From IMG/VR virus record IMGVR_UViG_3300018080_000121, positions 57,293 to 121,292 of that record: DNA of 64,000 nt; one strand, given 5' to 3'. The notes under the pieces were generated by a model. That model searched no databases. It saw only the letters and a program-made list of their open reading frames with translations, and was not told the origin of the DNA. This document shows, piece by piece, positions 12,189 through 59,479 of this stretch. A program made the position numbers and the translations under genes. Numbering within the stretch: position 1 is the stretch's first letter; every line of letters begins with the position of its first letter. This DNA comes from a virus.

Positions 12189-12438
12189 ATATGGCTTTCA
12201 CATATCTGAATACAATGGAGTTTGGAAGTGGACAGTAAGGGACCAACATGGCGTAGAACTTGCGATGAGTCCACGACATGGGTTTGCATCTGCTGATGCT
12301 GCAGTCGAAGCAGTGAAAGAACTCATAAATTTTATCATTGACAATGGGTTCAATATCCCTGTAACCGTGTACAAAGAAGGATTGGAGAATGATAGACAAA
12401 ATACAAATAGTGAGTTGGCTACTGACGCGGCGGTGTAA
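12166..12438 (+). CDS. YegP/DUF1508-like small protein
   Basis: WKWTVRDQHGVELAMSPRHGFASADAAVEAV fits the YegP pattern (w.w.l...ng..ia.s..y.s...a...i). Confidence 0.5.
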   Translation: MMGWRESRYGFHISEYNGVWKWTVRDQHGVELAMSPRHGFASADAAVEAVKELINFIIDNGFNIPVTVYKEGLENDRQNTNSELATDAAV

Positions 12439-13423
12439 CCTCAAATGTTCCTATTGTGCGATTACCAGGAACTATAAAGGAAAACCAGATCAGTATCCTG
12501 ATATGAAGCACTACTTGGAAAATGAGATGGACACCAAAACAGTGATTGAAATTCTCAGGAGAATAAAGGCTCATAACCCAGATGCATTCCATATTCTTTA
12601 TGGGGGCGAGCCGCTCTTGAGAAAAGATCTTCCGGAGATTGTGAACTTCTGTAACTCAGAAGATATCCATTACACAATCATAACCAATAACTCTGACGAG
12701 GTCCAACCATTACTGGAAAAACTCTTGGTTGAGACCGACTACGTAACTGGTTTGACATCTTCTGTAGATCCTCTAGTTGAATCTGAGGACCCTGAATCCG
12801 ACCGTTATAAGAAATGTGTCGCAGGGTTTAATCGGTTGGGAGAATACAGAGATGTCATTAAAGATGTCGTTGCTGAAATAACCGTTGATAATAACAACGT
12901 TGGACATCTTTATAATCTTGTTGCTATGCTCACAAAGATGGGAGTTAATAGCGATATAACTTTCATTGATATTGCGAAGAGTCCGTACTATGACTTTTCA
13001 AATGTTACAGATGAAGGACTGTTGGTTCCCCAATCGGATGAGTTGAGTCTACAATTTGATAAGATTATAGATGATAAACTCGACGTACATATGGCGGATA
13101 AACTACTCCCAGAAATCTTTAAAATCTTACCGTCGGATATGGATTGTGGTATTGAAAACAATATCCATAACATGACCATTGACGCAGATGGATCAGTAAG
13201 ATTATGTTTGAGAATTCGAGGAGTACAAACTCCAAAATTTAAAGCAATTGATCAGTTTTCACCCGATGGAAAACTTATGGCTGCATCTCTTAGAAAGTTC
13301 ATAAAGCATGATAAAGACATATACTGTAGGGGTTGTAATTGGACCTGTATGTTGATGTCACGGATGCTTTCAAGGAGAAAAGATACAGTCCAGAATCTAG
13401 TCCATCGGGATAGGAGGAAATGA
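12389..13423 (+). CDS. radical SAM enzyme with C-terminal SPASM/Twitch-type Cys motifs
   Basis: CNLKCSYC, GGEPLL, C...TIDADGSVRLC...CRGCNWTC. Confidence 0.88.
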   Translation: MIDKIQIVSWLLTRRCNLKCSYCAITRNYKGKPDQYPDMKHYLENEMDTKTVIEILRRIKAHNPDAFHILYGGEPLLRKDLPEIVNFCNSEDIHYTIITNNSDEVQPLLEKLLVETDYVTGLTSSVDPLVESEDPESDRYKKCVAGFNRLGEYRDVIKDVVAEITVDNNNVGHLYNLVAMLTKMGVNSDITFIDIAKSPYYDFSNVTDEGLLVPQSDELSLQFDKIIDDKLDVHMADKLLPEIFKILPSDMDCGIENNIHNMTIDADGSVRLCLRIRGVQTPKFKAIDQFSPDGKLMAASLRKFIKHDKDIYCRGCNWTCMLMSRMLSRRKDTVQNLVHRDRRK

Positions 13424-14266: not shown

Positions 14267-16756
14267 ATGGAAGAGATTGTTATGAATCCATACTTTGCCA
14301 GCTTGGTAATCTCTGATGAATCAAGCGACACTTCAGACAAAACTAAAAAAACATTCACTCCATTTAAACGGCTTAAATTGATAGATACGCCGGACTTTTT
14401 TCGTGGAATGAATGGTACCCACATGGAGAGGGAAATTCTTCCGAGGAATTGCAGAATTGTACATGACCTTCCCAATACCAGTGAGAAAATAGTTGTTATT
14501 GAGGAAGAGCCGGGTGTCCGGAATCTGAGATTTGCTGTTGGATTCCAGGGGACTTTAGACTCGCTAAAAAATGCTGGTTATGATGATATGTACCAGTATC
14601 TCAGCGAAAATGTAAAGAGTAGAAATGGAGAATATACCTTGCAGGTGTCAATGCCATTTGTAGTAGTGGTTATGTTTATTCAAAACTACATTGCCACTTC
14701 AGTGCAAGTATTCTTTCGAATGCGACCCCTTACAAGTTATTCTGATTCTCTGTACTATGCAAACCTCCTCAACATTCCAGACAGTCAGTATATATGTCTT
14801 GGTAATCGACCCCCAAGTTATCGTGAACCAGATAATCTCTATGATGCTTGTACTATTGAGCTTGAAAGATTCTGGAACACAGCATATAACATGGATTACT
14901 ACCACAACTACAAGATGTATGAGCGGGATGTTCCGGAAGTCTGTAATCCGCTTGTGTGGCATTATAATACTGTGATTGATCCCATGTTTATCTACACAGT
15001 TCCGTGGATCATCTATCCTAAAACGATAGGTGAAACAATAGATGATATGGCGGGTGGTAGAACACAAGGAATCCCATCATACGACAAACTAAGGGAGATA
15101 TTCTATCGACCAATCAAAGCACAAACAAGACACAAAACCCACTATAAAAATACAGCTCAAGAGTTAGCTATTAAAAATAGTTACCTTTGTGTTGGGGATA
15201 ACATTACAATAGGAAAGAAAGAATACATTGTTGCATCTTTTGTCGGTACTCCTGGTCATAGACCTACGAGGGTAATCCTACAGGGTGCTGATGGGAAAAC
15301 GACAGAAGTATCCATTACACAAAAATTCAAAAATGAAATCCAGAAGCAGAGATCTGCATCGAAAGAAGTCAAGTCGGTTCAGATTGGTGATCAGAAGATC
15401 AGTACCAATGACTTGATTGTGATCAAGTCAAGATATGCTGGAAAGATTTTTAAGAAGGTACATGTAATTCGAGTCGCCAGAGATGGTAAAATAGAAGCAA
15501 GACTTGGTAGTGATTACTATCTTCTTGAGAATTTGGAATTCGATGTTGTGGATATGTCTAACGTTGAAGTTAACGGGATTAAGGTTGACGCAAATAAGAC
15601 CTATGTTATCCTGAAAGCGGATTATGGTCAAGGTCCTACGTTCCAAAAGTATGACGTAAAGCTTGACAGTTTTGATTCCAATGGGGCTAACATGAGAGCC
15701 TTGTTTAAGAATGTTATGACCGGAAGTAGGATTGCAATTGATCTAAATCCAACAGGTACGCCAGTATATAAGTTGTCGGATAGTAAAGACACTTATATAA
15801 CACCTCCTGTATTTAGATATGCCGACTCTCTTGTAACCAACTGGAAAGACGGTGGTGTTGATGGTTATGGTCTCATTCCTGGTGAAGGAATAGTGGCCTA
15901 CGATGGCGGTGGTTATTATAGAGATTATAAAAGGACTACCGCAAAGAGTAATATCCTGAGCGAGGATAAAACTGAGATTCATATTCCTAGCTTCGATGGA
16001 GATATTTACTTCAAAGTTGGGGATGCTGTAGTTCATGCGGACTGGAACAATCCTGAGAACATGTTGAAAGTCTGCACTATTGCTCTGTTTAAAGAGCAAC
16101 TTGGGTCGTTGTATATTGTCATGACGACTCTTGATGGAAAAGAAGTATTTGAAACCGAGTTCATTGATTTTGAACGAGGACGGATCAGACCTGGTACTGT
16201 CCGACACATTGTAGCAAAATGGGATAAATGGAAAGCTGGTGATAAACTTAGAGCAAAAGTTGGTCGTATTCCAGCATTTCCAAAGAAGGATGTCAACACA
16301 ATCGTTGGGTTCTTACCTGATACAGGTAGAGATATCCCTCAAATTTTGATGTCAAACGGGTGTACCCTCTGGATGGACGAAGAGACGATGAACAACTTTG
16401 AAGTCCTTCGTAGGGGAACAGCTGCTTGTGCAAAGCAGAAAAATGCTCCAATGCAACTGGACAAAATTAAGTGGCAACCGGGCGATCTGGTGGTAAGGGA
16501 TGGTTCGATTGGAATGATTAACCGGCATGAAGGAAGACGGTCCTTGAGAGTGACTGTTACTGAAAGGAGGGCAGGCTTTACGTACAATTATCCAACAAGG
16601 AAAAACTTAGTCAGGTATGGTTTCCTGATACCAAGACGGACGCAACAACATCAATACATGGGAACTGGATTTCCTGTATTTCCTAACTTCCATGGTTGGT
16701 ATACTGTTGCGGAAAGGAGTCCAATGCATGTATCGGAGGACGTGAACAATGTTTAA
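14267..16756 (+). CDS. prokaryotic E2 family D (PRTRC protein B-like) domain fused to a long beta-rich C-terminal region
   Basis: LPRNCR...VVIEEEPGVRNL...SMPFVVVVMF...VFFRMRPL...LYYANLLNIPDSQYICLGN with candidate catalytic Cys; adjacent to JAB/ThiF/Ubl. Confidence 0.65.
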   Translation: MEEIVMNPYFASLVISDESSDTSDKTKKTFTPFKRLKLIDTPDFFRGMNGTHMEREILPRNCRIVHDLPNTSEKIVVIEEEPGVRNLRFAVGFQGTLDSLKNAGYDDMYQYLSENVKSRNGEYTLQVSMPFVVVVMFIQNYIATSVQVFFRMRPLTSYSDSLYYANLLNIPDSQYICLGNRPPSYREPDNLYDACTIELERFWNTAYNMDYYHNYKMYERDVPEVCNPLVWHYNTVIDPMFIYTVPWIIYPKTIGETIDDMAGGRTQGIPSYDKLREIFYRPIKAQTRHKTHYKNTAQELAIKNSYLCVGDNITIGKKEYIVASFVGTPGHRPTRVILQGADGKTTEVSITQKFKNEIQKQRSASKEVKSVQIGDQKISTNDLIVIKSRYAGKIFKKVHVIRVARDGKIEARLGSDYYLLENLEFDVVDMSNVEVNGIKVDANKTYVILKADYGQGPTFQKYDVKLDSFDSNGANMRALFKNVMTGSRIAIDLNPTGTPVYKLSDSKDTYITPPVFRYADSLVTNWKDGGVDGYGLIPGEGIVAYDGGGYYRDYKRTTAKSNILSEDKTEIHIPSFDGDIYFKVGDAVVHADWNNPENMLKVCTIALFKEQLGSLYIVMTTLDGKEVFETEFIDFERGRIRPGTVRHIVAKWDKWKAGDKLRAKVGRIPAFPKKDVNTIVGFLPDTGRDIPQILMSNGCTLWMDEETMNNFEVLRRGTAACAKQKNAPMQLDKIKWQPGDLVVRDGSIGMINRHEGRRSLRVTVTERRAGFTYNYPTRKNLVRYGFLIPRRTQQHQYMGTGFPVFPNFHGWYTVAERSPMHVSEDVNNV

Positions 16757-17927
16757 TGTATGGATCAACGACGGTACAACTGAAATGCCTACTGACGATA
16801 TTCTATATATCGTAGCGAAAGATGGGATATTCTTAAAGAAGAAATTAGGTTTCTTTGAGAGTATTGCGAAAGTGGACCAAATGTCTATTTTGAAAGATGT
16901 AGATCCTTATGCGACGATGGACATTAAACCAATACCAAGAAAGAAATTTGCTCAAATCATTTCATTCTATCGTGAAGTGGCTAAGCAATTTTCTGGTGAG
17001 GCGATGACCATTTTACATTATAACCCGAAACGAAAAAGGTTTAGAATTGAAATCCCTGACCAGGAAGTTTCGGGTGGTGGTGTTGGATGGGAAAGTTTGG
17101 AAAGCTACAAGGGTTATGTTCGAATCGGTTCAATTCATAGCCACAATCATATGTCCGCTTTCCACTCAGGAACGGATGATAACGACGAATTCAATTGGGA
17201 TGGAATTCATATCACGATTGGAAAAGTCGGGAATCCAAATGTTGACATTTCAGCGTCATTAGTGTTTAACGGAACCAGGTTCATGATTGACCCATGTGAT
17301 TATGTAGAAGACTTGGAAATGGTAGAATCCGAGGCTTCATATGTAGGTCCAAAGACCTATAAATGGGAAGGTAATAAGCTGGTACCAGCAAACGACGCTG
17401 CTAAGAAAACAGTTACATTAGGATATCGAATCAAAAATGAAAGGGCTAAGGAAAGGAAATTCCCTTCTACCTGGTTGAAGAATGTGAGTAAATGGATGCC
17501 GAGAACTCAACCAAATCAGGGAATTTATTCAGGTGGTGTCAATGGTATTGTTGGACCGGCTCGACAACCATGGCAGCATAATCCACATGGAAATCCTTAT
17601 TGGGGAAGGTTCCATCAAGGTCGTCATAATGGTCGACAAGCTCTCTTGAGACGACAATTTAATACAGGAAATAATCATGATCAGGTCGCTGCTCAGGAAG
17701 GAGTCAGTTTTGACACAGCTTATGAACCCGGGGATCCAATGGATTGGGATCCATGTGAAAACTGTCCGTATTGCAACTATAAATCCAACCAGTTGCTTAT
17801 GGATCTTATTAACCAGTTGGATTTGGATGAGGACCAGTTAGCACAGCTTGGGCTTACTGAAGAAGAAGATGACAATCCATTAGCGGGTGAATACGATGGA
17901 GGTGAAGTGTATGTTGGGGGACCGTAG
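16749..17927 (+). CDS. JAB/JAMM metallo-isopeptidase (PRTRC protein A-like)
   Basis: EAM...QEVSGGGV...IGSIHSHNHMSAFHSGTDDNDE (E, HxH, S, D). Confidence 0.88.
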   Translation: MFNVWINDGTTEMPTDDILYIVAKDGIFLKKKLGFFESIAKVDQMSILKDVDPYATMDIKPIPRKKFAQIISFYREVAKQFSGEAMTILHYNPKRKRFRIEIPDQEVSGGGVGWESLESYKGYVRIGSIHSHNHMSAFHSGTDDNDEFNWDGIHITIGKVGNPNVDISASLVFNGTRFMIDPCDYVEDLEMVESEASYVGPKTYKWEGNKLVPANDAAKKTVTLGYRIKNERAKERKFPSTWLKNVSKWMPRTQPNQGIYSGGVNGIVGPARQPWQHNPHGNPYWGRFHQGRHNGRQALLRRQFNTGNNHDQVAAQEGVSFDTAYEPGDPMDWDPCENCPYCNYKSNQLLMDLINQLDLDEDQLAQLGLTEEEDDNPLAGEYDGGEVYVGGP

Positions 17928-18606
17928 AATCAAAATTGTTGGATTGGGCGGAATCGGTTCTGCATTATGTGATAACCTATGCAGATTTCTAAACCATCAA
18001 CCCACCCGCTGTAGACTTGTACTAATTGATGGTGATGACTACGAGATTAAAAATAAAGCTCGCCAGTCATTTAATCAGTTGGGAAACAAGGCGAGGGTAA
18101 AATGTACAGAAATGAGATTGTCCCATGAGAATATCTCGTTTGACGATGTTGCTGAATATCTAACACCGTCAAATATTGGGGAGTACATTCAAGAAGATGA
18201 CGTTGTGTTTCTGTGTGTAGATAACCATAAAACGAGAAAAGTGGTTTCTGATCATGCAAAGACACTTGAAAACGTTATTGTGATTTCTGGTGGTAATGAA
18301 TACACAGACGGAAATGTGCAAATCTTTATTAGAGAAGGAGGTGAAAATAAAACACCGTCGTTGTCAGATTACCATCCGGAGATCGCCCACCCTGGTGATA
18401 AGTCACCAGATGAAATGAGCTGTGAAGAGTTGGCGAACTCTGAGCCACAATTGTTATTTGCAAATCTTTCTGTGGCTACAATTATGTGTTGGACTTTCTA
18501 CAATATTCTTGAAGGAAAGTTGGCGCAGAACAGCTCAGAAGTATATTTCGACATGTTGAAAATGAATACGCTAGCAAAACAACGAAAACCTAGAGCTCAA
18601 AAGTAA
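17911..18606 (+). CDS. ThiF/E1-like activating enzyme
   Basis: IVGLGGIG, LIDGD.YEIKNKARQ, FLCVDNHKTR, ISGGN, candidate catalytic MSCEE; ATG 17911 behind GGAGG. Confidence 0.9.
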   Translation: MLGDRRIKIVGLGGIGSALCDNLCRFLNHQPTRCRLVLIDGDDYEIKNKARQSFNQLGNKARVKCTEMRLSHENISFDDVAEYLTPSNIGEYIQEDDVVFLCVDNHKTRKVVSDHAKTLENVIVISGGNEYTDGNVQIFIREGGENKTPSLSDYHPEIAHPGDKSPDEMSCEELANSEPQLLFANLSVATIMCWTFYNILEGKLAQNSSEVYFDMLKMNTLAKQRKPRAQK

Positions 18607-18612
18607 GGAGGA

Positions 18613-19104
18613 TTGAAACAAATGGGTACATTTAAAAGAGAGACATTGGAAGCTAAGACGGTTGTGGAACTCAGGGACATTCTTCGCAAGAAACAAATTA
18701 AAGGGATGATGAAGAAACCCAAGAGACAAATTATCAATGCGATCATGGATTCCCAGAAGGGTGCGGTTCCTGCAGCTGCAGTGGCGAAACCTTCCAAAGC
18801 TTCTCCCAAGTCCACTGGACCGGTTACCAAAATGTCTCTGACAATGGACAGTGAATTGACGAAGCCTGGTGCTCGATTCGGTAACAGAACCAAGACGACC
18901 GTCCGTGTTTCCTGTGGTGCTTCTTCTGGTGACTTTCCGGTTTGCGGTAAGAGCGTCGGCGCTGTTGCGAACTTCCTGCGCGAAGTCCTCAATGTCGATA
19001 AGCTCGCTGAGGGTCTTGTCAACGGTGAAAAAGTCTCTGAGGACTATGTTCTCCGTGAAGGGGATACCCTCGAATACATCAAACCTGCTGGCCGCAAGGG
19101 CTAG
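18613..19104 (+). CDS. ubiquitin-like (beta-grasp) protein with N-terminal Rho_N/HeH-like helical domain; C-terminus GRKG
   Basis: VRVSCG...SVGAVANFLREVLNV...LVNGEKVSEDYVLREGDTLEYIKPAGRKG-stop; N-terminal KTVVELRDILRKKQIKG...KRQIINAI. Confidence 0.85.
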   Translation: MKQMGTFKRETLEAKTVVELRDILRKKQIKGMMKKPKRQIINAIMDSQKGAVPAAAVAKPSKASPKSTGPVTKMSLTMDSELTKPGARFGNRTKTTVRVSCGASSGDFPVCGKSVGAVANFLREVLNVDKLAEGLVNGEKVSEDYVLREGDTLEYIKPAGRKG

Positions 19105-19114
19105 AGCGTAGTTA

Positions 19115-19140
19115 GTGGGGGTGGGGAAACTCACCCCCAC
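19115..19140 (+). terminator. GC-rich stem-loop directly after the Ubl gene (terminator or transcript stabiliser)
   Basis: GTGGGGGTGGG-GAAA-CTCACCCCCAC: 11-bp stem with one G-U and a GNRA loop; no U-tract. Confidence 0.5.
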
Positions 19141-19157
19141 ATCCCGGAGGTGAAAAC

Positions 19158-19697
19158 ATGGAAGAAGAAGTTCGAGTGGTCGAGGAAACTGATGAGCACT
19201 ATTTAATTGAGAAGTTAGATGGATCAATGGTGAAGGCTTATAAGATTGACCAGCGAGATATTGTTGCGGCTCATATAGCTGGAGTTAATAAAATCGCAAA
19301 AGCTTTAGAACCAAGAGATGTAATGCATCTCGTTCATCTTATTGAAAATATTCTGAATTTTGAACCGACGATTTCAGAGTATTTGGATATGGCTACGAAT
19401 CTTGGTAATGTTATTGGTGACCTCTACGATAGAGTTGGAAATCCAAATCTTTTACATCATCCACATAAAAACATACACCCGGAATGTTATGGAACTGCAC
19501 AGACTCTTAGAGATGAATGTGTCAAGCTGCTAAAGTTATTGTGGGAGGTGTTAGAAGAGCAAGAGAGAGGAAATCGTATTGGCGACGTGAGATATAGTGT
19601 AGCTGAAATGACCAGGATAGTACTTTATGTTGCTAACCATCAAATTAAGTTCTCAAGACAAAGAGAGTGTACATATACGACAACAAAAATCTCTTGA
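19158..19697 (+). CDS. hypothetical protein inside the Ubl cassette
   Basis: GGAGG RBS; 179 aa, helical. Confidence 0.65.
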   Translation: MEEEVRVVEETDEHYLIEKLDGSMVKAYKIDQRDIVAAHIAGVNKIAKALEPRDVMHLVHLIENILNFEPTISEYLDMATNLGNVIGDLYDRVGNPNLLHHPHKNIHPECYGTAQTLRDECVKLLKLLWEVLEEQERGNRIGDVRYSVAEMTRIVLYVANHQIKFSRQRECTYTTTKIS

Positions 19698-19737: not shown

Positions 19738-20628
19738 ATGGCGAATAGTATCGTTGTAATCGGGTTAGGCTCGCTGGGAGGTTTCTTTGCAGAAAATATC
19801 TCAAAGCTTGACGGGGTGAAACGCCTCATTCTTGTTGACCCGGATATTGTCGAGAAGAAAAATCTGAAAAATTCTATTTACAGAAAGAGAGATGTTGGAA
19901 AAGGAAAGGTTGATGCGCTTGCTGATATTCTAGAATTCAGTCTAGATGGGAGCATCGAAATCATAAAAATCTTTAAGGAGTTTAAGGAGGGAGAGACACA
20001 ACTACCAGAAGCAGATTTGGTGTTTGATTGTAGGGATGTTCTATGTAGCAGGGGTGGTTACATAGATGTGAAGATGTACATTTCTTTCCGAACGTTAGTC
20101 GTCGACTGTCAAAAACATGTTAATATTCCAAACACACGACGTGGAAGATATGTAGACCATGTTACCAAGAATGATATTCGAAATGCAGCATTTAACGCAT
20201 TTCTTCTAGTGTATAGTAAGAAGATTTATGATTTGATGCGACAACAGACAGTACATACAATCCAGTTGGACGATTATCGAGAAGGTGTAAACCAAAGTCT
20301 TGAGTTGGTACAGAGTAAAAATGACTTGGTATATGAAAGTCAGAATGGAGAAGAGAAATTAGTAAATCTCCATGAGAATCTAGTACCAATTCTTGAAGCC
20401 AATAAAAAACAGGATCTGAATGTGATTATTGGTGAAAAGCAAAATGTTTCACAAAAGTTAATGAAAATTCCATGTTCTGAGATGAGGGACCAATTCGACG
20501 TGATTAGGGTTTTCTCTGAGTTAGCAAGGAACATTCCATTGTCGTATGATAGGTATCTAATTCGAGTATTATATCTAAAGAAGGAAGGTATATATATCGA
20601 ATTGCTACCCAGCACAGGAGCTGCATAA
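19738..20628 (+). CDS. second ThiF/E1-like protein with C-terminal extension
   Basis: IVVIGLGSLGG, LVDPDIVEKKNLKNSIY, DVGKGKVDAL, VFDCRD. Confidence 0.8.
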   Translation: MANSIVVIGLGSLGGFFAENISKLDGVKRLILVDPDIVEKKNLKNSIYRKRDVGKGKVDALADILEFSLDGSIEIIKIFKEFKEGETQLPEADLVFDCRDVLCSRGGYIDVKMYISFRTLVVDCQKHVNIPNTRRGRYVDHVTKNDIRNAAFNAFLLVYSKKIYDLMRQQTVHTIQLDDYREGVNQSLELVQSKNDLVYESQNGEEKLVNLHENLVPILEANKKQDLNVIIGEKQNVSQKLMKIPCSEMRDQFDVIRVFSELARNIPLSYDRYLIRVLYLKKEGIYIELLPSTGAA

Positions 20629-20629
20629 A

Positions 20630-21043
20630 ATGGGAGAACAATTCACAGTTGAGGTGAATAGTCCGATAGTCCCTGTTTCACTTATCTGGAATCAACAACT
20701 TTATGAGATTGTCGGCGTTCACCCAAGTTATGTGATGAATAAATATACAGTACACGTCGACGACTCTAGAAACATTACGGAATTGTACATCTGGAACTCG
20801 TTCCACCCAAACGCAGGCAATGCAACCAATGAACAAGTTCCTATTTCACAACCGCCGAGAATGAGTAAGTTCTGTTTACCACCAGAGTTAATAGGAACTC
20901 ATTTTGAGCTTCCTGATACTACTTACTTTTTAGAGCAATTTGTTCTAAATCGGTGGTACCTTGATAATCCACATCACTATCCAAATCCTATCCATTACAA
21001 AACTGAACCAGACATAGGAGGGCAACATGTTGGGAGAATTTGA
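20630..21043 (+). CDS. putative E2/UBC-fold protein
   Basis: FHPNA...SKFCLP resembles the UBC HPN...C signature; directly follows the E1-like gene. Confidence 0.45.
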   Translation: MGEQFTVEVNSPIVPVSLIWNQQLYEIVGVHPSYVMNKYTVHVDDSRNITELYIWNSFHPNAGNATNEQVPISQPPRMSKFCLPPELIGTHFELPDTTYFLEQFVLNRWYLDNPHHYPNPIHYKTEPDIGGQHVGRI

Positions 21044-39836: not shown

Positions 39837-39926
39837 GTGGATATTCGGGTGTTCGCACCCACTTGCATTATATGCTTGAAACATATAAATGGATGATGAA
39901 TATAAACGACAGGGGGAGTAGAGAAG

Positions 39927-40340
39927 GTGATCTCTACTCCCCCATTTTCCGTCGGAGGGAATCTTATGGAAGAAGAATACCACCATATCATTGGTGTTAG
40001 AACTGTACGCGCTGATAGCGGAAGACCAAAGTTATCATGCGACTTTGTAATCACAATTACGCCAGACCAAATTACTAAATCCCGCCTTGCTGAATCAATG
40101 TACAAAAACAAGTTATGGAAAACCACTTACCGAGAAGCGATTGAAGCGGTGGGTTTACAAGAGTTGGATGCTGCACTTTGGGCTTCCAAAATCAGAGCCA
40201 GTTCAAATATGATGACAATTCACAAATTTGTAACAAACTTTGAAATGACTAGAGAGGATTTTGATATCTTTGTACAAGCTGCGAATGTGTCAGATGGAAC
40301 TCTTAAGAAACTCATGGATGGAAAGATTGGAGGTGGTTAA
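39927..40340 (+). CDS. hypothetical protein
   Basis: likely ATG start near 39966 behind GGAGG. Confidence 0.55.
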   Translation: MISTPPFSVGGNLMEEEYHHIIGVRTVRADSGRPKLSCDFVITITPDQITKSRLAESMYKNKLWKTTYREAIEAVGLQELDAALWASKIRASSNMMTIHKFVTNFEMTREDFDIFVQAANVSDGTLKKLMDGKIGGG

Positions 40341-43358: not shown

Positions 43359-44792
43359 ATGTCGAAGATACCTGGAATGGACGACATGGATCCAATGGAA
43401 GCAGTAAAGAAAGCAAAGGAAATCAAGGACGAGGCTATTGGAAGAGTGAAAAAGAAAGGGAAGAGATGGTTGGTGATCACAGGTTGTGTCATCATAGCGC
43501 TGTTTGTAGCACCATTCATTTGTACAACGGTTGAAAGAGGTACTTACCACATCAAACAGACAGCGATCTTTGGTACAATGTACGCAAAGACTAGTCCTGG
43601 TATCTGGTTGCAACTATGGGGTGATATCGATGTGTGGCCTAAAGCTTTCACATTCTTCTTTACCCATGACAAGGATACCGACTCTGATACCCACGGAGAC
43701 CTTTCTATGGAAGTTCGATTTGTAGATGGGTCGAAGTGTAAGATCTCAGGGACCGCTCGTGTTGTGATGCCAACAGATGAAGATACCGCCTTGACGTTGG
43801 TTACAGAACACAACTATAAAACCTGGAAACAGGTAAGAGATCTCTTAATCCGACCGACAATTCGTAATGCTCTCAGAATGACCGCAAATATGATGACAGC
43901 TCAAGAGAGTTATTCATCCAAACGAATTAACTACAACGAGTGGGCTAGAGACCAAATTGAGAACGGGTTGTACCAGACAATGGATGAAAGTCGTCTCGTC
44001 GAGGATCTGGTTTCAGGAGATAAGGTTATGAAGACGTTTAAGGTAATTAAACGTGAACCTGCGATTGATGAGAAAACTGGAAAACAAATGGTAGATAATG
44101 AGGGAAATCTCATGTGGGGTGTACCTCTTTATCAAAAGAACCCGTTGGAAGGGACTGGCATTCATCTTGAAAACTTTGAGGTAAAATCCTTTGAGTATGC
44201 TGATAAGGTGAAAGATCAGATTGCTACACAACAGGAAGCCTTTATGGCGGTTGCTACTGCTAAAGCAAAGAAGCAAGAAGCGGAACAGCGTAAGCTCCAA
44301 ATTGAGGCTGAAGGTAAAACAGAAGTAGCGAAAGCTAAATACGAGGAAGAACAAATCAAGGTTCGTGCTGTGGTTGTAGCTGAAAGGGAGAAAGAAGTTC
44401 GTGAGTTGAACGCAGCGAGGGATAAGAACGTAGCAGTGATTGCTGGTAAACAAAGGAAAGAAGTTGCTGCTCTGGACAAAGCTGCTGCTGAGCTGAACAA
44501 GAAAAAGAATATCCTTGACGGTGAGGGTATCGCAAAGAAGAAACAACTGATCCTCGATGCTGACGGCGCACTCCAACAGAAGCTGGATACCTATCAAACG
44601 GTCATGGCTAAGTGGGCAGATGCTTTCGAAAACAGAAAAGTGCCAGCTTATATGATGATTAGTGGTGGAGCGGGCGGAACAGGTGGCAATCATCCTGACG
44701 CCCAGACCGCCCAGTTTATGGCGAATCTCAACGCGCTAACCCTTCAGTCGTTGGGATTGAATATTGACATTAAGAAGGGGCGTCAGAAATAG
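43359..44792 (+). CDS. SPFH/Band-7 (flotillin-like) membrane protein
   Basis: N-terminal TM (WLVITGCVIIALFVAPFIC), SPFH core (VRFVDG...IRNALRMTA), Ala/Glu-rich flotillin coiled coil. Confidence 0.75.
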   Translation: MSKIPGMDDMDPMEAVKKAKEIKDEAIGRVKKKGKRWLVITGCVIIALFVAPFICTTVERGTYHIKQTAIFGTMYAKTSPGIWLQLWGDIDVWPKAFTFFFTHDKDTDSDTHGDLSMEVRFVDGSKCKISGTARVVMPTDEDTALTLVTEHNYKTWKQVRDLLIRPTIRNALRMTANMMTAQESYSSKRINYNEWARDQIENGLYQTMDESRLVEDLVSGDKVMKTFKVIKREPAIDEKTGKQMVDNEGNLMWGVPLYQKNPLEGTGIHLENFEVKSFEYADKVKDQIATQQEAFMAVATAKAKKQEAEQRKLQIEAEGKTEVAKAKYEEEQIKVRAVVVAEREKEVRELNAARDKNVAVIAGKQRKEVAALDKAAAELNKKKNILDGEGIAKKKQLILDADGALQQKLDTYQTVMAKWADAFENRKVPAYMMISGGAGGTGGNHPDAQTAQFMANLNALTLQSLGLNIDIKKGRQK

Positions 44793-45110: not shown

Positions 45111-46181
45111 ATGGCAGACGCAGCACAAGAAGTTGTAGAGAACACGGAAGAGTTGGAAGCAACAACCGAGGAGAACGAAGTGGAAGCTTCCGGAGATCTG
45201 GAGAATCACGGTTTTCCTGTTGGTGATGATGACGAGATTGAAACGGTTGAGGAAGAAGATGAAGTCGTAAATCGTCGTCAGACCTTCGCAGATCGTATTG
45301 AGGATATGGGGTTGACCGAAATGGGAGACGGGTGCTACCACTACGCTGACGAGCATTGTGAGGTGGCTTACAGGTCTCTTTATACCGGAGGTGGTGCAGA
45401 GATTATGGACAATGTCGCTGTTCCGCATTTGTCCCTGTTCACCAAGGGTCTTGAGGAAGATGATGACTGGAAGAGAGCTGGTTTGGTTTCCGACGCCTAC
45501 AGGTTTACTGGAAATGGTGCTCTCATTGAGGCGATCAAGGCCTCCATCGTCGACGCCGGTTCTCCCATCTTCAGGGAAGCTTCCTACCTTACCGCAAACA
45601 AAACCCAGATTCGTCATGAGATCATTGTCCAGAACGAGACTAATATTCCCTCCGTGGGTGATGTGTATCCGTTGATCGTCATCAAGAATAGCTACGATGG
45701 GACGATGGCAGCAAACATCAGTTTCGGGTTGTTCTTCAATGACTCCGACGATCTGGATGTTATGTTCGGTTCCAAGCAAAACTGGGGAAACATTCGCCAG
45801 GTTCATCTTGAGGGAGCACAAGCAGATCTAAGCGGTCCTCTTGGTGGATACGTCACTGCGTTTAGCGAGAACATCGCCGACTTGGTTCAGACGAATTTGG
45901 ATAATGAACTGACCGAACAAGAGATGCTCGCTACGCTGGATGTGATTGAACGGTCTGCTGGTAAGAAAAGGCGGGAAGCTTTGTCCGCAATCCTCGAAGA
46001 GATGCACGACGGGGAAGAGGGTGATACGCCCATGACAAGCTGGAAAATGTTCCATGCGATTACCCGGTTTAGCACGATGGAGAAAAACCTCAACGCCAAG
46101 CTCCTTCTGGAGAATATGGCTGAGAGAGTTCTGGTAGTTCCTCCACAAATGTTGGAGGTTCTGTCCGAACTCCAAGGGTAG
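45111..46181 (+). CDS. DUF932-like protein with acidic N-terminus
   Basis: PLIVIKNSYDGT...FGLF; TSWKMFHAITRF. Confidence 0.45.
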   Translation: MADAAQEVVENTEELEATTEENEVEASGDLENHGFPVGDDDEIETVEEEDEVVNRRQTFADRIEDMGLTEMGDGCYHYADEHCEVAYRSLYTGGGAEIMDNVAVPHLSLFTKGLEEDDDWKRAGLVSDAYRFTGNGALIEAIKASIVDAGSPIFREASYLTANKTQIRHEIIVQNETNIPSVGDVYPLIVIKNSYDGTMAANISFGLFFNDSDDLDVMFGSKQNWGNIRQVHLEGAQADLSGPLGGYVTAFSENIADLVQTNLDNELTEQEMLATLDVIERSAGKKRREALSAILEEMHDGEEGDTPMTSWKMFHAITRFSTMEKNLNAKLLLENMAERVLVVPPQMLEVLSELQG

Positions 46182-46329: not shown

Positions 46330-46335
46330 GAAATT

Positions 46336-46371
46336 GGACCCCTCGGAATATATCTGAGGGGTCCATTTTTT
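46336..46371 (+). terminator. rho-independent terminator ending the early/middle block
   Basis: GGACCCCTCGG-N7-CTGAGGGGTCC followed by ATTTTTT. Confidence 0.8.
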
Positions 46372-56947: not shown

Positions 56948-59479
56948 TTATTCTTGTGTAAGAATCCTTACAACAATATCATCTTCTGTGAAATATACCC
57001 ACTCAGGACCATATTCTAGAAGCTCTTGTTGTGAGAAGTCTGATATATTGAAATTAAAGAAAATGCTACTCTCAGGTTTTATTAACCTACAGTGTGATAC
57101 GCCAGTAACTCCTTGTACTACATCAATCATTTCTGTTCTATAAATGGCAATGTTAGGACCAAACCTGTCACTAAACGCCGATACTAATGCAGTTTTTATA
57201 TCTGCTGAGAGACCTGCATCTGATGTATCAGCGGTCGGATCTCTAAACACTTCTAGTTCAATTTGTAATGGGATGTCATATATTGGCGGCGCCCATCCAT
57301 ACTGCGTATAAATGTACTTATAAGGTTTAGAATCAATATTAACAATGTCATTTGCAGTCGGTTCGATATAGGTCCATGTGATACTTGTTGAATCTGTGCA
57401 TAAAGCAATCTGATCTCTTTTTCCTTCCCACTCTCCTCCTTCATTACCACTGATAATGTACCTATCAGAGATACTTGGCGACGTAGGAATGGATGTCAAA
57501 CCAATGTCTTTCACGTCGGGTCTTGTAACGTCGTTTCTTAGCATATTAGTCATAATCCCTGTCGCATTACAAAACTTAACATTGGTGAAGTCTGTCAACA
57601 TTCTATAGCTCTTTAAATCCATTGATGAGAGTAATGCTTGAAGAACTTGTAGTTCAAAATCTTGTTTCGTAACCCCATCATAATAACTCTTCTTAATTAC
57701 AGGAATATCATAAATTACTGTAGTTGTTCCGTCGTCGGATGTATTTGACATCATATAATCTGAAAGGTCATCTCGAAACGTGAATGCAACGGAATATTGG
57801 CTTATAAGCTGCTCATGAACTAAGTTGGGATTACTAAATGTAAAATAGTAAGTTTGCTCCCCTTCTGGAATTGTCATATAATTTGGGAACGTATATCTAA
57901 ATGTTCCAGCTTGTGCACCAGGAACATTTGTCATTGTATAAGTTGCGCTATTTGACAATATTTGCATCTCACATTCAACATCTGCAAAATCCAGTTCATT
58001 AGAATAGTATGTGAGTTCAAAAGTTGCTTCGTTTGTGGAGTCACTAACACTTACGGTTAATTCATTCGCATGGAAATGGTATGGGTCTTGTAAGTCATGC
58101 CCCCAACTTTGAATCAACAATGGAGTCAACTGAAGCTCATACATAATATAATGATAGTATGCTGCTTCGTTCATGCTATCCAATGTCATTTCAAATAGGG
58201 TAACATAATTTATACCATTTACAGATATAATTGTTCCTCGTGGTATATATGTAATTACTGAAGGTAATGTATACTTTGCATTTCTAGTAGGAACAATTTC
58301 ATCACCAAATAGAAGTACTGTAAAGAGTTGGATTTCATTTACTTTTAAATCAGATCTCTTTAAAACTGGAATGGAATTTTGTGCAACAGGAGCGTCATCC
58401 ACAATAGCTGCAATTCCTTCATAGTCACCCTCGGTAACAAGACGATTTAGAGCTGTAAGATTTGTTATGGAGTTTGACCGAATATCTTCTAATGATTCCT
58501 CATCTGCTCCACCTGTAGCTGGTGAAGGATTGGTTACAGTATAGTCGACTATAGTTGTGATGCCACTCTGTTGACTATATATTCTATCACCAGTTACAAT
58601 AGATCCAGCAATAACATTACCATCAGCACCTTCAGTTTCGTCTATACTTACAATAACCGTAGATCCTGGAAGTGGTTGTTGACCAATCAAACCATTTCCA
58701 AAATATAATCGCTTACCTTCGGAGGATGTTCTAACAACGTACCCGTAGTCGTCACTCCCCATCAAATATAAACTTGTAAATTCAGTATACAACCTACCAG
58801 TCGCACCACCACCTTCATCAGGATCTCTTACATATACTGTAATGTTAGCTACTTTTCCTTCAATTGGGACGTCAACTGTTGTAAACTGAAAGGGTTGTAG
58901 GTCTTCGTCAATTTGGAATTCTTGTTCAGTTGGTTTATACTGTCTAACTGGGAGTACAAATGTGAAAGTTTGATCTTCAGATGTTGTATCAATTCCAACT
59001 GGAACGTTGTATACACGACCGTCCTGATCTGCAGAAATACTTACACCTGTGTTATTTGTGATGGCAACTGTAGTTTCATAGTAAGTAATAAAAGTAATTC
59101 CATCGCTTGTGGAAAACTCGAACTCATCAGGAATTGTAAAAGTTGTATTCGGATCTGTAAATGGAAGAGGGACTGTCATTAGGACATTTGCTGTTGCGTA
59201 AGTTGCTTCTGAAGGTCTGTACCCAAGGAACGAACTTAGATTATGAATAGATTCTGGGAGTTGTGCTTTTGTTAAGAAGAACTCACGATATACATTGTCC
59301 TGATAGAACATCAAGTTTGATGTTAGAGCAGAAATTACGTCTATGACGTATGATAGGAATGATGACTGAGTAAGATCAACATTATCGAGCTCCATATACT
59401 GCTTAGTGTACTCAATAATCTGATTTCTTATCGAGTCTCTAGATGCATATACTTGTGAAGAAATAGGTGTATCAGCCAT
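56948..59479 (-). CDS. baseplate wedge protein (T4 gp6/baseplate J-like)
   Basis: EFFLTKAQLPESI..L...LGY.P..AT.A; LYFGNGLIGQQP; ATGGADEESLEDIR...LNRLVTEGDY. Confidence 0.85.
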   Translation of the reverse strand: MADTPISSQVYASRDSIRNQIIEYTKQYMELDNVDLTQSSFLSYVIDVISALTSNLMFYQDNVYREFFLTKAQLPESIHNLSSFLGYRPSEATYATANVLMTVPLPFTDPNTTFTIPDEFEFSTSDGITFITYYETTVAITNNTGVSISADQDGRVYNVPVGIDTTSEDQTFTFVLPVRQYKPTEQEFQIDEDLQPFQFTTVDVPIEGKVANITVYVRDPDEGGGATGRLYTEFTSLYLMGSDDYGYVVRTSSEGKRLYFGNGLIGQQPLPGSTVIVSIDETEGADGNVIAGSIVTGDRIYSQQSGITTIVDYTVTNPSPATGGADEESLEDIRSNSITNLTALNRLVTEGDYEGIAAIVDDAPVAQNSIPVLKRSDLKVNEIQLFTVLLFGDEIVPTRNAKYTLPSVITYIPRGTIISVNGINYVTLFEMTLDSMNEAAYYHYIMYELQLTPLLIQSWGHDLQDPYHFHANELTVSVSDSTNEATFELTYYSNELDFADVECEMQILSNSATYTMTNVPGAQAGTFRYTFPNYMTIPEGEQTYYFTFSNPNLVHEQLISQYSVAFTFRDDLSDYMMSNTSDDGTTTVIYDIPVIKKSYYDGVTKQDFELQVLQALLSSMDLKSYRMLTDFTNVKFCNATGIMTNMLRNDVTRPDVKDIGLTSIPTSPSISDRYIISGNEGGEWEGKRDQIALCTDSTSITWTYIEPTANDIVNIDSKPYKYIYTQYGWAPPIYDIPLQIELEVFRDPTADTSDAGLSADIKTALVSAFSDRFGPNIAIYRTEMIDVVQGVTGVSHCRLIKPESSIFFNFNISDFSQQELLEYGPEWVYFTEDDIVVRILTQE

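Follow-up and report, generated by a model that had tools for sequence, protein, structure and literature searches.

Does a phage carry its own machinery for tagging proteins with a ubiquitin-like domain, and if so, why would the tag be fused to a basic domain that resembles the N terminus of Rho? These questions are raised by a 160-residue protein, which we will call the Ubl, from a viral contig in IMG/VR. A sequence-only reading of this DNA had described it as a ubiquitin-like protein fused to a Rho_N/HeH-like domain. This description holds. The gene is located among genes for E1-like, E2-like, and JAB proteins, with the qualification that the matches to E2 proteins are weak. Our favored answer, which we consider fairly probable, is that this is an abundant phage Ubl that can be conjugated to other proteins, and that the conjugates carry the basic HeH domain as a handle.

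By the window, we mean the whole stretch of DNA that was analyzed: 64,000 nucleotides, which is the second half of record IMGVR_UViG_3300018080_000121 (positions 57,293 to 121,292). The record is 121,292 bp long and its CheckV completeness is about 39%, which suggests a giant phage. Other genes in the window encode topoisomerase subunits, SbcCD, two radical SAM proteins, FolE2, the large terminase, and unsplit beta' and beta subunits of RNA polymerase. The beta' subunit is just 26–31% identical to those of the closest cultured phages. There were zero matches in the INPHARED phage records for the DNA of the cassette around the Ubl gene or for the Ubl protein.

Architecture of the Ubl and its conserved C terminus

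The features of the Ubl gene are as follows.

18605..18611, + strand: Shine-Dalgarno site AAGGAGG, read from the sequence; overlaps the stop codon of E1a and lies 10 nt upstream of the ATG
18622..19104, + strand: Ubl gene, 160 amino acids plus the stop codon
18622..18765, + strand: residues 1–48, basic three-helix Rho_N/HeH-like domain (Pfam, family profile, AF2, Atlas search, and charge)
18766..18885, + strand: residues 49–88, disordered (low-confidence) linker that is rich in Ala, Lys, Pro, and Ser (AF2)
18886..19101, + strand: residues 89–160, beta-grasp domain (ubiquitin/ThiS/MoaD-like) that ends in LEYIKPAGRKG (AF2, Foldseek, and VIA)
19115..19140, + strand: hairpin with an 11-bp stem (including one G-U pair) and a GAAA tetraloop; begins 10 nt past the Ubl stop; -22.3 kcal/mol

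The open frame extends from 18613 to 19104. The gene had been reported to begin at 18613, and the frame is real, but that position holds a TTG, in frame and upstream of the probable start, which is the ATG at 18622. We prefer this ATG given its spacing from the Shine-Dalgarno site and the matching Met in the relatives. All 16 of the relatives that we checked start at the equivalent Met, with a site of the AAGGAG or AGGA type about 7–10 nt ahead of the ATG.

Several approaches agree about the N-terminal domain. Pfam's Rho_N model matches residues 9–45 (E = 0.0017), with a score of 18.7 bits that is under the gathering score of 24.9, and PF07498 is precomputed for roughly one fifth of the listed homologues. 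A profile of the family, built from 66 sequences, matches the N terminus of Rho proteins of solved structure (the best is 3l0o, E = 2e-4, across residues 3–48). AF2 predicts helices at residues 6–11, 14–23, and 34–45 with pLDDT above 90, and the Atlas model of residues 1–48 gives TM scores of 0.80–0.87 (by query) on Rho_N proteins. The domain has a pI of 10.5, with 13 Lys or Arg residues versus 5 Asp or Glu. So the basic HeH-like domain that had been suggested for the N terminus is borne out. The same is true of the Ala/Lys/Pro linker that was said to join the two domains: residues 49–88 or so have pLDDT of just 49–65, and in the family alignment, both the length and the sequence of this region vary among the relatives.

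The N-terminal domain of Rho (PF07498) and the SAP/LEM/HeH group have the three-helix fold and the basic charge in common with the phage domain. In Rho, the three-helix bundle lies upstream of an OB fold, which does most of the RNA binding. The phage domain differs in being a solitary module, joined through a flexible linker to the Ubl that comes after it, and its Pfam score does not reach the gathering threshold. Judging from the fold, the charge, and this analogy, the domain may bind nucleic acids, although a Rho_N domain by itself is not an established nucleic acid binder.

The rest of the protein is confidently predicted to be a beta-grasp, with pLDDT of 87–97 across most of residues 90–150. 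The best structural matches from VIA are Fubi (Z = 8.6, rmsd of 2.1 across 66 aligned residues) and MoaD (Z = 8.4), followed by ubiquitin variants, ISG15, TtuB, and SAMP1, with Z down to 7.2. The top matches from Foldseek are SUMO, ubiquitin, and NEDD8. The gene reads ..PAGRKG and then a stop codon, so a beta-grasp that ends in GRKG was correctly identified. The predicted fold by itself cannot separate protein modifiers from sulfur carriers. The Pfam hints on this domain are to ThiS (E = 0.03, 15.3 bits versus a gathering score of 22.5) and TGS (E = 0.0026) only, and family members with tandem domains exceed Pfam's cut-off for ThiS.

Given the TGS hint, the Ubl might instead be a nucleic-acid-binding or architectural protein that acts non-covalently. 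The beta-grasp would then be an interaction module or a TGS-like RNA-binding module, and the neighboring E1 and JAB genes would be irrelevant. A basic N-terminal domain, a linker, and signs of abundance are also what one finds in structural or nucleoid proteins. We think that this is very improbable, because the extreme C terminus is conserved. The most conserved segment of the family is the C-terminal end, with a consensus of LEFxKPAGxKG, and short, presumably removable caps lie beyond it, which is not expected for a pure binding module. Also, the Ubl gene is in strict synteny with E1a: at all loci, the two genes are on the same strand and 15–60 nt apart.

The conservation of the C terminus is striking in its detail. 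Across 66 sequences, K159 never varies, and G157 and G160 vary only rarely. Lys-Gly is found within the last nine residues of 237 of 267 family members (89%). Of these, 135 end exactly at Lys-Gly, 75 have one additional residue, a Cys, and the remaining 27 have other tails of 1–5 residues. In other words, 102 of the 267 members (38%) are capped, with 1–5 residues past the Lys-Gly. One locus has a tail that reads ..GRKGDRKGC. A conserved Gly that is followed by short, variable, and presumably removable caps resembles the pattern of ubiquitin-like precursors. Similarly, overhangs of 2–9 amino acids past the C-terminal Gly have been reported for homologues of BilA (bioRxiv 10.1101/2023.09.04.556158).

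This pattern bears on two further proposals. First, the penultimate Lys had been suggested as a site for the formation of chains, and we find no support for this. Given that Lys-Gly is nearly invariant at the end of the family, K159 looks instead like a recognition element for an E1, an E2, or the JAB. Second, the JAB enzyme had been proposed to act as a deconjugase and not as a maturase. That suits this phage, as its Ubl ends with a free Gly, but it does not suit the 102 capped relatives. In those, a peptidase must also mature the tag, most simply the JAB, and the JAB probably does so.

The conserved cassette and the sulfur carrier alternative

We found 21 IMG/VR contigs that encode a relative of the Ubl (46–100% identity), and all of them have a single gene order: SbcC, a radical SAM protein, two small genes, a protein of about 850 amino acids, JAB, E1a, Ubl, E1b, a protein of about 150 amino acids, a protein of about 75 amino acids, beta', and beta. 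The RNA polymerase subunits from the related loci are 56–60% identical to those of the window. In the window, the relevant genes are:

12389–13423: radical SAM gene, syntenic, upstream of the cassette
14267..16756, + strand: 829-aa protein with an E2 family D-like region (about residues 124–228, with Cys177 in ICxG) and a C-terminal region of about 600 amino acids
16749..17927, + strand: JAB/JAMM metallopeptidase with an intact HxH-x7-S-xx-D motif in its translation
17887..18606, + strand: E1a, a compact ThiF-type adenylating enzyme of 239 amino acids with GxGGxG, D-G-D..N..RQ, VDNHxxR, and Cys179 in EMSCEEL
19158..19697, + strand: 179-aa gene with no family match; an insertion that is confined to this phage and a near-identical contig and lies outside the conserved cassette
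19738..20628, + strand: E1b, a second ThiF-like protein with NS in place of RQ and a conserved C-terminal extension that ends in ..ETGAA or ..TGGA
20630..21043, + strand: 137-aa protein with an HPN..C motif, a candidate minimal UBC-type E2

The match of E1a to ThiF has E = 1.3e-19, its Cys179 is invariant, and the mean identity of its alignment columns is 69% across 14 loci. E1b matches ThiF in its N-terminal half only (E = 8.4e-14), and it keeps the Rossmann motifs. We considered whether the C-terminal extension of E1b might be a second beta-grasp and found no support for this idea, as a profile-profile comparison to the Ubl family showed no similarity. The JAB protein matches Prok-JAB (E = 1.2e-4). 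In PHROGs, the two ThiF-like proteins were the only ones with matches, and both matches were to families of unknown function.

The E2 candidates are more difficult. Prok-E2_D matches all 13 of the orthologues of the 829-aa protein, and all of these matches are under Pfam's cut-off (the best is E = 5.4e-5). Cys177 and Gly179 of this protein are invariant among the orthologues, and it is syntenic in all loci. In the 137-aa protein, His59, Asn61, Thr66, and Cys82 are invariant across 14 orthologues and Pro60 is nearly so. Its AF2 model has a pLDDT of 86, and most of the top matches from VIA are UBC-type E2s, with Z of only 3.2–4.6, while Foldseek found no match. We consider both of these putative assignments to be weak.

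The main alternative to a protein modifier is a sulfur carrier of the ThiS, MoaD, TtuB, or QbsE type. Under this scenario, E1a would adenylate Gly160, sulfur would then be carried as a thiocarboxylate and would feed the modification of the phage's nucleic acids or of a cofactor, and JAB would trim the cap, as QbsD or Mec+ do. In a milder form, the Ubl would have a dual role, as Urm1, TtuB, and SAMP do. Some of the evidence does lean this way. The Pfam hints are to ThiS and TGS only, with the tandem members passing the ThiS cut-off; the best structural matches include MoaD, TtuB, and ThiS-like chains, and MoaD and TtuB are as close as the modifiers are; and the best named matches of E1a are ThiF and MoeB. 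The one-residue Cys cap is reminiscent of the capped end of QbsE and of the CysO-cysteine adduct. Also, the syntenic radical SAM gene lies upstream (radical SAM proteins are not diagnostic), and a FolE2 gene lies downstream.

On the other hand, the Ubl ends in Lys-Gly, with an invariant K159, instead of the Gly-Gly of the known carriers. The cassette also has, as constant members, two E2-like proteins whose cysteines are invariant, albeit with weak matches to E2s. Among the genes of the window that we scanned, we did not find a rhodanese, a cysteine desulfurase, ThiG, MoaE, or TtuA. And it is hard to see why a catalytic carrier would require a basic HeH domain, a long linker, or very high expression. 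Overall, we think that a sulfur carrier, including the dual-role form, is unlikely.

Possible signs of high expression

The preference of the Ubl gene for C-ending codons, relative to its neighbors, was also noted from the sequence alone, and it is real. At two-fold degenerate, pyrimidine-ending codons, 14 of 26 (0.54) end in C, as compared to a median of 0.29 for ORFs across the whole genome (p = 0.013, binomial test against a background share of 0.31, with only 26 informative codons). GC3 is 0.51 for the Ubl gene versus about 0.35 (p = 2e-5). On both measures, the gene is an outlier in the window. The Ubl gene has a higher C-ending share than every neighboring long ORF at 13 of 16 related loci and nearly equals the highest of them at one more, so about 14 of the 16 relatives are alike. 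Among the genes in the window that we picked as coding, the sole other look-alike in codon bias encodes a DUF932 protein (45111–46181).

The shift in codons might be due to recent horizontal acquisition from a donor with higher GC, or might be some effect of composition, instead of reflecting high expression. The overall GC of the Ubl gene is indeed raised, at 0.50 versus about 0.38 for its surroundings, and because of this high GC we take the 218-aa antisense ORF that lies across the gene to be an artefact. We nevertheless consider such an origin to be quite improbable. The Ubl gene is at the identical place in every relative, and it shows the same shift versus its own neighbors in loci whose background GC spans 0.28–0.37, which argues for selection on the Ubl gene and against recent import. 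The shift is located at third positions. Furthermore, two pattern scans with the Ubl across 185,579 genomes of prokaryote species did not find any relative.

The 11-bp hairpin with a GAAA loop, which was said to follow the stop codon, is present at 19115–19140. There is no U-tract after it, and the next gene's Shine-Dalgarno site comes directly afterwards. In the 64 kb window, just two other hairpins are likewise perfect, rich in GC, and at least 9 bp long. One of these two is 3' of the DUF932 gene and is accompanied by a T-run. All 16 of the relatives that we checked have a hairpin 10–22 nt past the stop codon of the Ubl. The sequences of these hairpins differ: three of them have a UUCG tetraloop, and G-U pairs are common. 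The stability of the hairpins on the sense strand matches or exceeds that on the other strand. Since the hairpin is kept while its sequence changes, and since the sense strand is favored, we take it to be an RNA element of the message. We infer that it may stabilize the 3' end, or may act as a partial stop that raises the output of the tag over that of the enzymes.

Together, the codon usage, the strong Shine-Dalgarno site, and the conserved 3' hairpin are compatible with high expression of the Ubl, although codon bias gauges abundance only indirectly. A comparison of the loci did not reveal a conserved promoter in the 120 nt ahead of the Ubl, and sites that resemble sigma-70 promoters or intrinsic terminators occur at no higher rate than in shuffled sequence.

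A possible mechanism and its relation to known systems

If the Ubl is a conjugated modifier, as we favor, then it might work as follows. The tag would be made in large amounts, as signaled by its perfect Shine-Dalgarno site, its C-shifted codons, and its stable 3' hairpin. The hairpin would probably shield the 3' end of the message or halt part of the transcription ahead of the downstream enzyme genes. E1a, possibly paired with the degenerate E1b, would adenylate the free Gly160, and it may then hold the tag on Cys179. The tag would be transferred to the cysteine of an E2-like protein, which could be Cys177 in the 829-aa protein or Cys82 in the HPN..C protein. From there it would be joined to lysines of target proteins, with the long C-terminal region of the 829-aa protein as the likeliest selector of targets. 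JAB would strip the tag, and it would also expose the Gly in those relatives that run 1–5 residues past Lys-Gly. Each conjugate would bear the linker and the basic three-helix domain, which could tether it either to nucleic acid or to some partner recognizing the domain.

We can also imagine a more specific role, as a SUMO-like “chromatin” tag, which is speculative and which we doubt. The Rho_N-Ubl would be ligated to host or phage proteins that associate with DNA or RNA (the adjacent phage RNA polymerase would be a candidate), or to itself via the lysines of the linker. This might tether the modified proteins to nucleic acid or might form a cross-linked coat on the phage's DNA. E1a and E1b would then form a heterodimeric E1, like that of eukaryotes, that serves two E2s.

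How does this compare to what is known? By analogy, the phage system may function like the Bil, Bub, and PRTRC-type systems, even though it falls below the thresholds of the models for PRTRC and Bil. The PRTRC-type E2 family D / Prok-JAB / ThiF cassettes (Iyer, Burroughs and Aravind 2006, PMC1779556; PF14460, PF14464; TIGR03735, TIGR03736) have the same triad in the same order (E2-D-like, JAB, and ThiF), and both kinds of cassettes are on mobile DNA. Neither kind has an established function. However, the phage proteins score far under the curated cut-offs: the JAB protein matches PRTRC_A with E = 4.9e-11 and 42.6 bits versus a cut-off of 101.8, and E1a matches PRTRC_ThiF with E = 6.2e-11 and 42.1 bits versus a cut-off of 144.75. 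The Ubl has no match in NCBIfam, which includes PRTRC_C. Also, the phage's E2-D domain is part of a protein with about 600 additional residues, a further E1-like gene and a further E2-like gene are present, the Ubl bears a Rho_N domain, and the replicon is a giant phage of the lytic type.

The Bil system (BilA is the Ubl, BilB the E2, BilC the JAB, and BilD the E1) has the same logic of Ubl, E1, E2, and JAB, and shares the conserved C-terminal Gly with occasional short overhangs (bioRxiv 10.1101/2023.09.04.556158). Bil is a bacterial defense against phages that tags the phage's tail fibre (Hor et al., bioRxiv 10.1101/2023.09.04.556158). In contrast, the cassette described here is owned by the phage, and BilA has one or two beta-grasp domains without an HeH domain. 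With PADLOC, only the two E1-like proteins have matches: E1a matches BilD weakly (2.4e-6), and E1b matches the E1 part of the Cap2-type protein of CBASS (2e-11). No protein of the cassette matches PADLOC's models for BilA, BilB, and BilC.

The Ubls of Bil type II and Bub operons (Gong et al. 2024, PMC11601603; Ye et al. 2024, PMC11601596) likewise have an extra N-terminal module before a single beta-grasp, and that family also includes tandem beta-grasps (one to three, as compared to up to four in the phage Ubl family). The N-terminal modules of bacterial Ubls are reported to be Asn/Gly-rich tails, coiled coils, or DUF1508, and Rho_N/HeH is not listed (PMC11601603). Bub relies on oxyester chemistry and on a serine protease, whereas the E1 and E2 candidates of the phage retain their cysteines and its peptidase is a JAB.

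Finally, the phage system has a ThiS/MoaD-like beta-grasp, a ThiF-type E1, and a JAMM peptidase in common with Urm1, TtuB, and SAMP, and TtuB and SAMP1 are among its structural matches. Urm1, TtuB, and SAMP end in Gly-Gly and are not known to need an E2. The phage Ubl differs on both counts, as it ends in Lys-Gly and has two E2-like genes fixed in its cassette.

We searched the literature for phage-encoded Ubls, for Rho_N-Ubl fusions, and for jumbo or huge phages with ubiquitin, and found nothing that matches. In the literature that we searched, ubiquitin-like conjugation in prokaryotes is a defense against phages (Bil, the Cap2/Cap3 proteins of CBASS, and probably Bub). In this case, giant phages of one clade have the complete kit as a fixed core module beside their RNA polymerase genes, and phage-owned, ubiquitin-style tagging with a Rho_N-Ubl would be a form that this literature does not describe. 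If the conjugation is real, then the phage would attach a nucleic-acid-tethering handle to proteins of its choosing, which would be a new viral route to reorganizing the host or the replication factory of the phage. Minimal ubiquitin-type chemistry could also be studied in so compact a system, with an E1 of 239 amino acids and an E2 candidate of 137 amino acids.

The family is not small. A HMMER search against 1.84 billion representative sequences identified 496 clusters at E <= 1e-3, of which 117 were at E <= 1e-10, so there are at least 496 clusters at 50% identity. We did not find a functional name for any of them. Among the best 150 representatives, 112 (about 75%) have a Rho_N-like domain, 37 have a beta-grasp without a detected Rho_N domain (some of these are stand-alone proteins of 65–73 amino acids), and 8 have two to four beta-grasps in tandem. 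Some cultured giant phages of Bacillus, such as vB_BceM_WH1 (gp214–216), encode a triad of E2-D-like, JAB, and ThiF proteins; we looked for a Ubl beside the triad in those phages and did not find one. Some of the family members are encoded on contigs of up to 302 kb.

E1-like and E2-like genes of the cassette

Counting the genes of the cassette, we find two that are E1-like and two that are E2-like (the E2-D-like protein and a small candidate), versus one recognised Ubl. Two of these genes are as follows.

19738-20628, plus strand: E1b, the second ThiF-like protein, with a C-terminal extension of about 100 aa
20630-21043, plus strand: candidate E2-like protein of 137 aa, with invariant His59, Asn61, Thr66 and Cys82 and a nearly invariant Pro60

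The top structural matches of the 137-aa protein are mostly UBC E2 enzymes, with low Z scores (3.2-4.6). If it is E2-like, then it is among the smallest of such proteins. The C-terminus of E1b is conserved in 14 of 14 loci as Thr/Glu-Gly-(Ala/Gly)-Ala, most commonly in the form ..ELLEETGAA-stop. This end looks like a conserved tail that is either reactive or recognised; it may be that an E1-like enzyme here carries a second conjugatable end as a fusion.

Variation around the Ubl gene

The JAB protein (16749-17927) has 392 aa in this phage, as compared to 491-627 aa in the relatives (L003-L022); the region C-terminal to the JAB domain varies among the loci and is shorter here. Two other open frames lie at or beside the Ubl gene:

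19158-19697, plus strand: gene for a 179-aa protein that belongs to no known family, an insertion that separates E1b from the Ubl hairpin
18571-19227, minus strand: antisense open frame of 218 aa, spanning the entire Ubl gene

The 179-aa gene is present in this phage and in the near-identical contig (L002) only, and is absent from the 20 other loci. The antisense frame is an artefact that arises from the GC-rich codon use of the Ubl, and a gene caller that favours length would be misled by it.

A cultured giant phage with similar genes

The Bacillus phage vB_BceM_WH1 (L024; LC597490, 2704-5798), a giant phage in culture, has E2-D-like, JAB-like and ThiF genes, as the cassette does. The E2-D-like profile hits its gp214 (E = 7.6e-8), gp215 matches Prok-JAB weakly, and gp216 is a ThiF protein. 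NADAR and SPFH genes follow, and no Ubl was found near gp214-gp216.

Codon bias and hairpins elsewhere in the window

Among the genes of the window that were picked as coding, the sole other one with Ubl-like codon bias belongs to the DUF932 family (45111-46181; C-ending share of two-fold pyrimidine-ending codons 0.51, GC3 0.55). It is followed by a 13-bp hairpin and T-run (46335-46365) with the canonical shape of a terminator. The gene two positions upstream of the DUF932 gene is of the SPFH/Band 7 type (43359-44792). The window's third strong perfect hairpin (39912-39943; 13 bp, 6-nt loop) adjoins a tRNA-like region.
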